This document shows, in pieces, positions 23,283 through 23,500 of a DNA stretch of 64,000 nt. A model generated the notes under the pieces. The model had not been told where the DNA came from. It ran no database searches and saw only the letters and a program-made list of their open reading frames with translations. Within the stretch, counting starts at the first letter, position 1. Each line of letters begins with the position of its first letter. A program made the translations under genes and the position numbers. The DNA lies in assembly GCF_056712565.1 (NCBI RefSeq), contig NZ_CM160072.1; one strand, given 5' to 3'.

Positions 23283-23297
23283 TCTTTCGCTGAACAT

Positions 23298-23500
23298 ATT
23301 TGTCGGATGCGGCGCGAGCGCCTTATCCGACCTTGTATTATCCCTCCAGTGCAGAGAAAATCGGCCAGTTTTCTCTGCCTGCAGTCCGCATGCCGTATCC
23401 GACCTACGGTTCGCTATCTCTGGTAGGCCTGATAAGACGAACAGCGTCGCATCAGGCACACTGCCAGTGTCGGATGCGGCGCGAGCGACCAATCCGACTT
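23298..23500. repeat. BIME: cluster of about four REP elements between znuB and ruvB
   Basis: Alternating-orientation REP units (TGTCGGATGCGGCGCGAGCGCCTTATCCGAC, GTAGGCCTGATAAGACG...GCATCAGGCA, etc.). Confidence 0.8.

Follow-up and report, generated by a model that had tools for sequence, protein, structure and literature searches.

A 72-bp remnant of the IS621 left end in the REP cluster between znuB and ruvB of Escherichia coli

A REP cluster interrupted by IS621 DNA

The DNA considered here is a 64,000-nt stretch of contig NZ_CM160072.1, hereafter called the window, which is 100% identical to Escherichia coli DSM 30083 (= ATCC 11775), the type strain. In the window, the convergent genes znuB (+) and ruvB (−) are separated by a gap of 216 bp at 23283–23498. 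An earlier reading of these letters, made without database searches (the sequence-only reading), had described the gap as a bacterial interspersed mosaic element (BIME) of four clustered repetitive extragenic palindromic (REP) units that fill it almost completely. We show that the site is a BIME-2-type cluster of three REP units, arranged as Y-like (+), Z2 (−), and Y-like (+), which carries a 72-bp remnant of the insertion sequence (IS) element IS621. The call of a BIME stands; the palindromes, however, do not occupy almost the whole gap, since one third of it (72 of 216 bp) is non-REP DNA. Coordinates of the features are collected in Table 1.

REP sequences were analyzed by motif search with shuffled controls, blastn-short, RNA folding compared to shuffled sequence, and searches against Rfam. 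The 5′ arm motif GYCKGATGCGRCG, with up to one mismatch allowed, occurs 9 times in the window compared to 0.72 occurrences expected, a count reached in 0 of 100 shuffles; the 3′ arm motif occurs 13 times compared to 4.2 expected. Three units in the gap are imperfect palindromes of ~35 bp with conserved arms, a CTAC/GTAG tail, and a stable hairpin. The predicted folding energies are −19.2 kcal/mol (z = −3.5) for unit 1, −17.4 kcal/mol (z = −4.2) for unit 2, and −13.9 kcal/mol on the + strand or −15.0 kcal/mol on the − strand for unit 3. With motif counts far above chance and stable folds, the presence of REP-type palindromes in the gap is borne out, and the motif scan that the sequence-only reading had proposed as a check classes these three palindromes as REP. 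The arms of units 1 and 3 do not follow the consensus quoted in that reading (GCCGGATG...ATCCGGCCTAC): both units read GTCGGATGCGGCG...ATCCGAC and belong to the GTCGGAT...ATCCGAC variant. In unit 1, the stem spans positions 23302–23331 and is followed by CT at 23332–23333, which is the core dinucleotide of IS621.

BIME-2 elements consist of Y and Z2 palindromic units in alternating orientation and are bound by DNA gyrase; the work on this family is reportedly that of Bachellier, Gilson, Hofnung, and colleagues. The cluster in the gap has Y and Z2 units in +, −, + orientation, linkers of 16 and 11 nt, a copy number that varies among strains, and no L motif, the binding site of integration host factor (IHF). 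Since a long linker of the IHF type is lacking, the cluster is of the BIME-2 kind. The alternating orientation claimed earlier holds for the three true units but not for four, as the supposed second unit is oriented like unit 1. Matches to the Rfam family naRNA4 in the gap were located on the REP units only and were all below threshold. The best of them, at 23426–23499 (−), scored 53.3 bits compared to a gathering score of 59.5 and thus does not place the cluster in this family; the resemblance reflects REP structure, which is shared because the family was built from a REP pair.

The supposed second unit, at ~23385–23408, is not a REP. It consists of a REP-like 3′ half with no 5′ arm to serve as a partner, and its predicted fold (−7.4 kcal/mol, z = −1.1) is no better than those of shuffled sequences. 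Positions 23385–23408 correspond to nt 52–72 of the IS621 left end followed by the REP tail. The end of the fragment, GCCGTATCCGACCT, is a repeat of the 3′ arm found in REP unit 1. The last nine bases of the fragment are REP-like because the guide sequence of IS621 equals the top strand of its REP target, and it was this REP-like guide half that misled the earlier count of four units.

Positions 23334–23405 are identical at 72 of 72 positions to left-end nt 1–72 of the IS621 copy that strain MB53 carries at the same REP, and at 70 of 72 positions to canonical IS621. When 5,426 complete E. coli genomes were searched with a 60-bp probe from the block, 12,994 matching places were found in 2,233 genomes, at 100% identity in most cases and with as many as 27 in a single genome. 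Every match examined lies directly after a REP ending in ...ATCAGGC-CT and is followed, ~130 bp downstream, by a gene whose annotation is IS110-like element IS621 family transposase. Given the identity to the MB53 copy at all 72 positions and the absence of the block from LF82, it is very unlikely that the block is not homologous to the IS621 left end.

The location of the block is also that of an IS621 insertion. The natural target of IS621 is ATCAGGCCTAC with a CT core, and the element has a left end of 191 bp (PMC11208160). The fragment is located at such a target, immediately after the CT of ATCCGAC-CT-AC in REP unit 1. The left junction, ATCCGAC-CT/TGTAT at 23325–23338, is the same in the four full copies compared, including that of MB53. 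The natural ACGG tail of unit 1, which is contiguous with the unit in K-12 and LF82, is displaced to 23406–23409. The linker after the fragment is also present in K-12 and LF82 and to the right of the IS in MB53.

In genomic copies, left-end nt 15–191 reproduce the published 177-nt bridge RNA of IS621. The left target guide is located at nt 50–58 of this RNA (AUCGGGCCU), the right target guide at nt 77–80 (GUAG), the left donor guide at nt 123–130, and the right donor guide at nt 157–165 (PMC11208158; checked on the sequence); handshake guides are located at nt 81–82 and 166–167 (PMC11208158). These positions exclude the bases that follow the left target guide as the published handshake guide. 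The fragment encodes bridge-RNA nt 1–58 of 177, including a perfect hairpin with a 10-bp stem (23351–23378), and stops at the CT that ends the left-target-guide coding stretch. The left end is therefore incomplete. Compared to a full IS621, 1,207 bp are missing, from left-end nt 73 through the right-end CT; these include the recombinase gene and the −35 box as well as the remainder of the bridge RNA. The bridge-RNA promoter is complete only in the excised circle, the −35 box being located in the right end (PMC11208160); the right end of the genomic copies, ...TTGCAGGCCATAACAGTAT-CT, agrees with this. No sigma-70–type promoter was detected in the gap, as expected once the right end is gone. Neither a DEDD/serine recombinase gene nor an IS621 right end was found in the gap, and no match to a bridge-RNA family of Rfam was found on the fragment.

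Judged by these identities, positions 23334–23405 are an IS621 remnant and no longer an element. We regard the fragment as inert because it has no complete promoter, guide RNA, or enzyme. At its end, positions 23397–23405 together with the bases that follow regenerate an intact 11-bp IS621 target, ATCCGACCTAC, at 23397–23407.

The sequence-only reading had also stated that the last unit runs into the ruvB stop codon and that the window has no gene for a REP-associated tyrosine transposase (RAYT); both statements hold. The TTAC tail of unit 3 overlaps the stop codon, and the RefSeq annotation of the 64-kb window lists no transposase or RAYT gene, so that the association expected of a REP-RAYT system, a RAYT gene flanked by REPs, is not found in it. 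In the ruvB mRNA (window 23466–23504, −), the REP hairpin starts right after the stop codon (CCG UAA GUCGGAUUGG...). REP units near stop codons (within ~15 nt) are said, in work by Liang, Rudd, and Deutscher from 2015, to affect translation and to cause ribosome stalling. Such an effect might extend to ruvB; we draw no claim on ruvB expression. REP units are expected to form 3′ hairpins on znuB and ruvB transcripts and to serve as protein-binding sites, and nothing seen in this cluster is at odds with known REP clusters.

Table 1. Features of the znuB-ruvB gap and of other REP sites in the window.
Feature	Position	Strand	Details	Basis
znuB coding sequence	22497–23282	+	Stop codon 23280–23282	Open reading frame list; RefSeq annotation of the identical type-strain record
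REP unit 1, Y-like variant	23301–23333	+	TGTCGGATGCGGCGCGAGCGCCTTATCCGAC-CT	Inverted repeat, motif scans, fold
IS621 left-end fragment (scar)	23334–23405	+	Left-end nt 1–72	Sequence identity to IS621; absence from LF82 and K-12
IS621 left-end start	23334	+		
−10-like TATTAT	23336–23341	+		
Bridge-RNA nt 1	23348	+		
Bridge-RNA 5′ stem-loop	23351–23378	+		
Target-binding-loop stem, 5′ strand	23381–23393	+		
Left-target-guide coding stretch and core	23397–23405	+	ATCCGAC-CT	
REP flank resumes	23406	+	ACGG	
Displaced unit 1 tail (AC) and linker of the 16-nt class	23406–23420	+	ACGGTTCGCTATCTC	Read directly from the sequence
REP unit 2, Z2 type, inverted	23421–23459	−	GTGCCTGATGCGACGCTGTTCGTCTTATCAGGCCTACC on the − strand; stem 23427–23457	Inverted repeat, motif scans, fold
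REP unit 3, Y-like, degenerate 3′ arm	23468–23502	+	TGTCGGATGCGGCGCGAGCGACCAATCCGAC-TTAC	Direct and inverted repeat, fold
ruvB coding sequence	23499–24509	−	Stop codon 23499–23501	Open reading frame list; annotation
Single Y-type REP	18181–18216	+	7 nt after the pyk (pykA) stop; pyk ends at 18174	
BIME-1-like pair after cmoB	33457–33556	+	cmoB ends at 33442	Motif scans, annotation
Y REP of the cmoB site	33457–33491			
35-nt linker of the cmoB site	33492–33526			
Inverted, shortened Z-type REP of the cmoB site	33527–33556			

Empty, occupied, and scarred alleles

The comparison of unit number across strains that the sequence-only reading had proposed revealed a variable count and at the same time exposed the 72-bp block as lying outside the unit series. 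The gap is 146 bp with three units in K-12 (Y, 16-nt linker, Z2, 11-nt linker, Y), 144 bp with three units in LF82, 245 bp with five units in O157 and strain 32F4, and 340 bp with seven units in GDSC2239PM. Read from these alleles, the gain of units between znuB and ruvB is by 99-bp modules composed of Z2 and Y. The window allele is off that series: it is the three-unit form plus 72 bp between ...CGCCTTATCCGAC-CT and ACGGTTCG. In LF82, a closely related strain of phylogroup B2, the gap is identical to that of the window except for the 72-bp block and thus represents the exact empty site; K-12 is also empty.

The occupied state is found in MB53, ET201, PT62, and LP5-1, where a complete IS621 of 1,279 bp is located at the same REP. 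The MB53 element spans positions 1905–3183 of its locus, and its right flank, ...ACAGTAT-CT-ACGGTTCGCTATC, equals the flank after the window fragment. Since both the flanks and the 72 bp are identical, the window allele corresponds to the occupied site minus the part from left-end nt 73 through the right-end CT.

The guide stretch of the MB53 element reads ATCCGAC-CT-TGGGTTC.... ATCCGAC is a natural variant of the left target guide and a perfect match to this REP subtype. A mutation as the source of ATCCGAC in the scar was considered and is needless, as the full MB53 element has the same guide. Left target guides of IS621 copies vary: we observed ATCGGGC (the canonical, published guide), ATCCGAC (MB53), ATCCGGC (strain 536), and ATCCCGC (BA92), with the region of the right target guide changing along. 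The copy of strain 536 (locus positions 1501 onward) has a frameshifted transposase gene and is located beside IS1397 near kgtP. In BA92 (locus positions 1466–1750), the copy is fragmentary and divergent, with its break within the transposase gene, a truncation unlike the 72-bp scar. The left-end match of ETEC4079, which starts at nt 81, was examined as a possible truncation and proved to be a full copy with single-nucleotide polymorphisms (SNPs). In the type-strain genome (NZ_CP033092.2), two places match the IS621 left-end probe, the scar and one outside the window; by analogy with SF-468 and strain 536, the latter is probably a frameshifted IS621 variant near kgtP.

The scarred znuB-ruvB allele is present in 692 of the 5,426 genomes (13%), including the sequence type (ST) 95 and ST131 lineages. 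The exact junction of the window was found in 140 genomes, among them the ST95-type strains S88, UTI89, IHE3034, and APEC O1, and a variant of the scar with two SNPs (GGTCAG, GCCTT) is present in ST131-type strains, often together with IS1397 in the loop of the Z2 unit. Matches to a probe for left-end nt 1–60 exceeded those to a probe for left-end nt 73–191 by 796 places and 554 genomes. From this excess it follows that most solo 5′ fragments in the species are the znuB-ruvB scar, inherited vertically.

When GTDB genomes and JGI metagenomes were searched for the scar junction, only the znuB-ruvB locus was found, along with one contig labeled as Chryseobacterium that contains E. coli sequence. 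This 209-bp contig of low coverage (NZ_MVAG01000238.1, from a Chryseobacterium mucoviscidosis assembly) contains the znuB-ruvB scar joined to an IS1397 end and is almost certainly E. coli contamination.

In ST131-type strains, IS1397, a member of the IS3 family, was observed within the Z2 loop at a site that corresponds to window position ~23441, where it has a 3-bp duplication (ACA). In strain S4, the insertion occupies positions 1794–3284 of its locus, and three further loci are alike. Two different REP-targeting elements, IS621 and IS1397, have thus hit the same 146-bp cluster. Insertion of IS1397 in REP loops is described by Clement et al. 1999, as cited in PMC1525189.

Scars at other loci were sought with a probe in which the canonical guide is followed by the REP tail (...GCCGT-ATCGGGC-CT-ACG). 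A second scar locus was found in the flagellar region, in the gap between the rod-binding-protein gene and flgK (~39 genomes, O26:H11 type), and a third one in the msrQ-zinT gap of STEC2017-197. Both scars consist of left-end nt 1–72 and end at the same CT as the znuB-ruvB scar. Both keep the guide ATCGGGC of the IS, while the REP’s own half is ATCAGGC or ATCCGGC. The junction is therefore at the CT of the guide and does not derive from REP-REP homology. The msrQ-zinT REP, moreover, has no second REP downstream. Homologous deletion between REPs was accordingly rejected as the origin of the scar, as two of the scars retain ATCGGGC and one of these lacks a downstream REP. Complete IS621 elements with identical flanks are present at the flagellar and msrQ-zinT REPs in 19 and 31 genomes, respectively, and when left-end nt 73 through the right-end CT are removed in silico from the flagellar allele in its occupied form, the scarred allele results exactly over 672 bp. 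A search for a scar with the guide ATCCGGC found none.

Possible origin of the scar

We consider it probable that the scar arose from a resident full-length IS621 through recombination between two CT dinucleotides, with the IS621 recombinase and its bridge RNA as the most likely agent. The two would be the CT that follows the stretch coding for the guide (ATCCGAC-CT-TGGGT) and the CT of the right-end junction (ACAGTAT-CT-ACGG). During excision or copy-out, the recombinase–bridge RNA complex would occasionally pair the right junction with this internal site rather than with the true left junction. Such an event would generate, on the one hand, a defective circle that lacks the 5′ third of the bridge RNA along with the −10 box and, on the other, a 72-bp scar with a regenerated 11-bp target.

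Between the internal site and the true left junction (ATCCGAC-CT-TGTAT), 12 of 14 positions agree, and 11 of 14 do so for a canonical element in an ATCAGGC target. Because the internal site is the DNA that encodes the guide, the opposite strand of the guide-coding stretch complements the left target guide at every position. On the donor side, the right donor guide pairs with positions 8–11 (CTTG) and 13–14 (AT) (PMC11208158). The internal site keeps CTTG at positions 8–11 and has GT instead of AT at positions 13–14, where a U-G wobble is possible. Both endpoints of the scar are CT cores, the right one being the normal right-end junction. Truncation at the same base at three sites suggests that the elements do not always leave cleanly. 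The more general proposition, that the IS621 recombinase with bridge RNA can use its own left-guide-coding DNA as an alternative left site and that IS110 elements are sometimes lost imperfectly, leaving long-lived 72-bp scars in REPs, appears to us evenly balanced between being right and being wrong.

Several considerations weigh against a recombinase-driven loss. We infer the action of the recombinase at the internal site from sequence comparison. The probes were designed for this junction, so that a breakpoint shared by three events does not establish that breakpoints elsewhere are rare; different truncations exist, such as the BA92 copy mentioned above, and one partial IS621 is listed, with no further description, in the E. 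coli W genome paper. The predicted reciprocal product, a reinserted IS621 devoid of left-end nt 1–72, was not found, with no match in a single piece, which is a weak negative; the search output consisted mostly of ordinary insertions matching as two joined pieces. Excision of IS110 elements has been described as scarless (Durrant et al., PMC11208160). Last, a 2025 preprint argues that copy-out by IS110 elements preserves the donor copy; if copy-out is the only route, an additional step is required for a resident copy to be lost.

The same 1,207 bp could also have been lost by a host-mediated deletion, through replication slippage or microhomology repair between the two CTs, with the recombinase uninvolved. 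The CT at both endpoints would suit such an event, as would, at znuB-ruvB only, the presence of GGTTC at +3 to +7 after both CTs, which makes a 7-of-9 imperfect repeat. At the other two loci, however, the endpoints share just CT and one G. Furthermore, the three independent scars are the same at both endpoints to the base, with the right endpoint at the IS boundary and the REP flank restored, and a homology of two bases is not expected to lead, within an element of 1.3 kb, to one and the same pair of sites on three occasions. We therefore think a host-mediated deletion unlikely. A comparably low probability is assigned to abortive transposition, in which only the first 72 bp were deposited by partial top-strand transfer or copy-out, the second junction formed at the guide-coding CT, and the site was never full. 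The preprint reports stepwise top-strand transfer that starts from the left junction, leads to new targets, and is supported by the target-binding-loop RNA alone, and both junctions of the scar are of the left-target-CT kind recognized by this RNA. On the other hand, a complete IS621 is located at the same REP with identical flanks in related genomes for all three loci. With these occupied alleles, it is simpler to assume that the scars descend from sites that were once full. Their number is also low, with three loci found, even in genomes with 10 to 27 IS621 copies.

The recurrence of the same 72-bp unit at three different REPs could alternatively indicate a small non-autonomous mobile element with a left-target-CT site at either end, which IS621 would move in trans. 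Each of the sites, however, is also known in the fully occupied state; genomes with the znuB-ruvB scar contain one or two fragment matches, with no sign of proliferation; and the GTDB and metagenome scans reveal no other locus. This makes a mobile 72-bp unit highly improbable. Least probable of all is the original view of a four-unit BIME made of REP palindromes only, in which positions 23385–23408 would derive from REP amplification, and we consider it refuted. Although 12 to 14 bases, GCCGTATCCGACCTAC, do resemble a REP 3′ arm, the missing 5′ arm and the weak fold described above speak against a REP unit, all 72 bp agree with the IS621 left end and are absent as one block from LF82, and true unit gain at this site, seen in the 245- and 340-bp alleles, is by 99-bp rather than 72-bp modules. 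Loss of a resident IS621 by CT-CT recombination remains the reading we prefer.

REP units, BIMEs, the preference of IS621 for REPs, and the bridge-RNA mechanism are already established, and the REP cluster alone is textbook material; the IS621 remnant adds further value. In the literature searched, including the seekRNA paper, we found no description of base-precise left-end footprints that end at the guide core; an earlier mention in Choi et al. 2003 is possible. In the scars, a bridge-RNA element has left a footprint in natural genomes that is recurrent and precise to the base, with empty, occupied, and scarred states at three loci. The analysis also identifies a natural IS621 variant with a left target guide, ATCCGAC, that is tuned to another REP subtype, and it provides, in the scar, a stable lineage marker within phylogroup B2. 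As a REP-like half-site can be a fragment of a guide-RNA gene, motif-based annotation of REPs and BIMEs may miscount units. Whether guide-coding DNA is itself a substrate of the recombinase becomes a directly testable question that bears on off-target rearrangement of guide cassettes. If it is, engineered bridge-RNA cassettes would share this weakness, their guide-coding DNA being a perfect half-site for the enzyme.

Other REP sites of the window and relation to known systems

The REPs that had been reported after pykA and cmoB are real (Table 1). Compared to BIME-1, which consists of Y, a long IHF linker, and inverted Z1, the cmoB site has Y, a 35-nt linker, and a shortened inverted Z. The linker contains a near-consensus IHF motif, AATTCAATATATTG, with one mismatch to WATCAANNNNTTR, and is a candidate IHF site. 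The Rfam family ES036 (CssrF) scored 43 bits, above its gathering threshold of 37.6, at 33492–33534, on the inter-REP linker of the cmoB site; this family appears to correspond to the BIME linker. Two further degenerate REP pairs, absent from the earlier list, are located at 9005–9090 (yebF-yebE gap) and 44620–44690 (cheZ-flhB gap).

Other observations concern the genes of the window. The exodeoxyribonuclease X gene exoX, at 5203–5865 (+), has an internal stop in the type strain and is annotated there as a pseudogene. Between tar and cheR, at 47762–47913 (−), is a short fragment with a frameshift, which bears the annotation “Tar ligand binding domain-containing protein”. K-12 has tap between tar and cheR, and the type strain appears to have lost most of the chemoreceptor gene at the tap position. 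Rfam small RNAs above threshold, at 2185–2329, 37470–37777 (−), and 49668–49745, are SraC/RyeA with SdsR/RyeB on the opposite strand, MicL, and C0465.

With regard to known systems, the gap shares with BIME-2 its alternating Y-like and Z2 units, short linkers, and extragenic location between convergent genes; it differs in that units 1 and 3 carry a variant of the Y consensus and in that 72 bp of IS621 DNA break the cluster. General properties of REPs are summarized in PMC1525189. IS1397 targets the same BIME and sits in its Z2 loop in ST131-type strains, but it is another element with another mechanism and is absent from the window. Compared to IS621 itself (Choi et al. 2003; PMC11208160; PMC11208158), the fragment is identical to left-end nt 1–72, is located after the CT core of the 11-bp REP target ATCNGNC-CT-AC, and has the 5′ stem-loop as well as the left target guide. 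In contrast to the complete element, it comprises only 72 of 1,279 bp, has neither the recombinase gene nor the right end, and carries the guide ATCCGAC instead of ATCGGGC.

The right breakpoint of the scar is the normal right-end junction, and the full 11-bp target is regenerated, as in the scarless excision of IS110 elements via a circle (PMC11208160); in contrast to scarless excision, the left breakpoint is located 72 bp inside the element, so that a footprint remains. The nearest published parallel is ISPpu9 of Pseudomonas putida, with its alternative circles and solo ssr9 modules (PMC12288879). ISPpu9 is likewise an IS110-family element in REPs that uses alternative internal or external sites, forms several types of circle, and has separate partial modules in the genome. 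The extra module of ISPpu9 sits downstream of that element's transposase gene and appears to propagate, whereas the leftover of IS621 is a 5′ part of the guide-RNA gene and is non-propagating.

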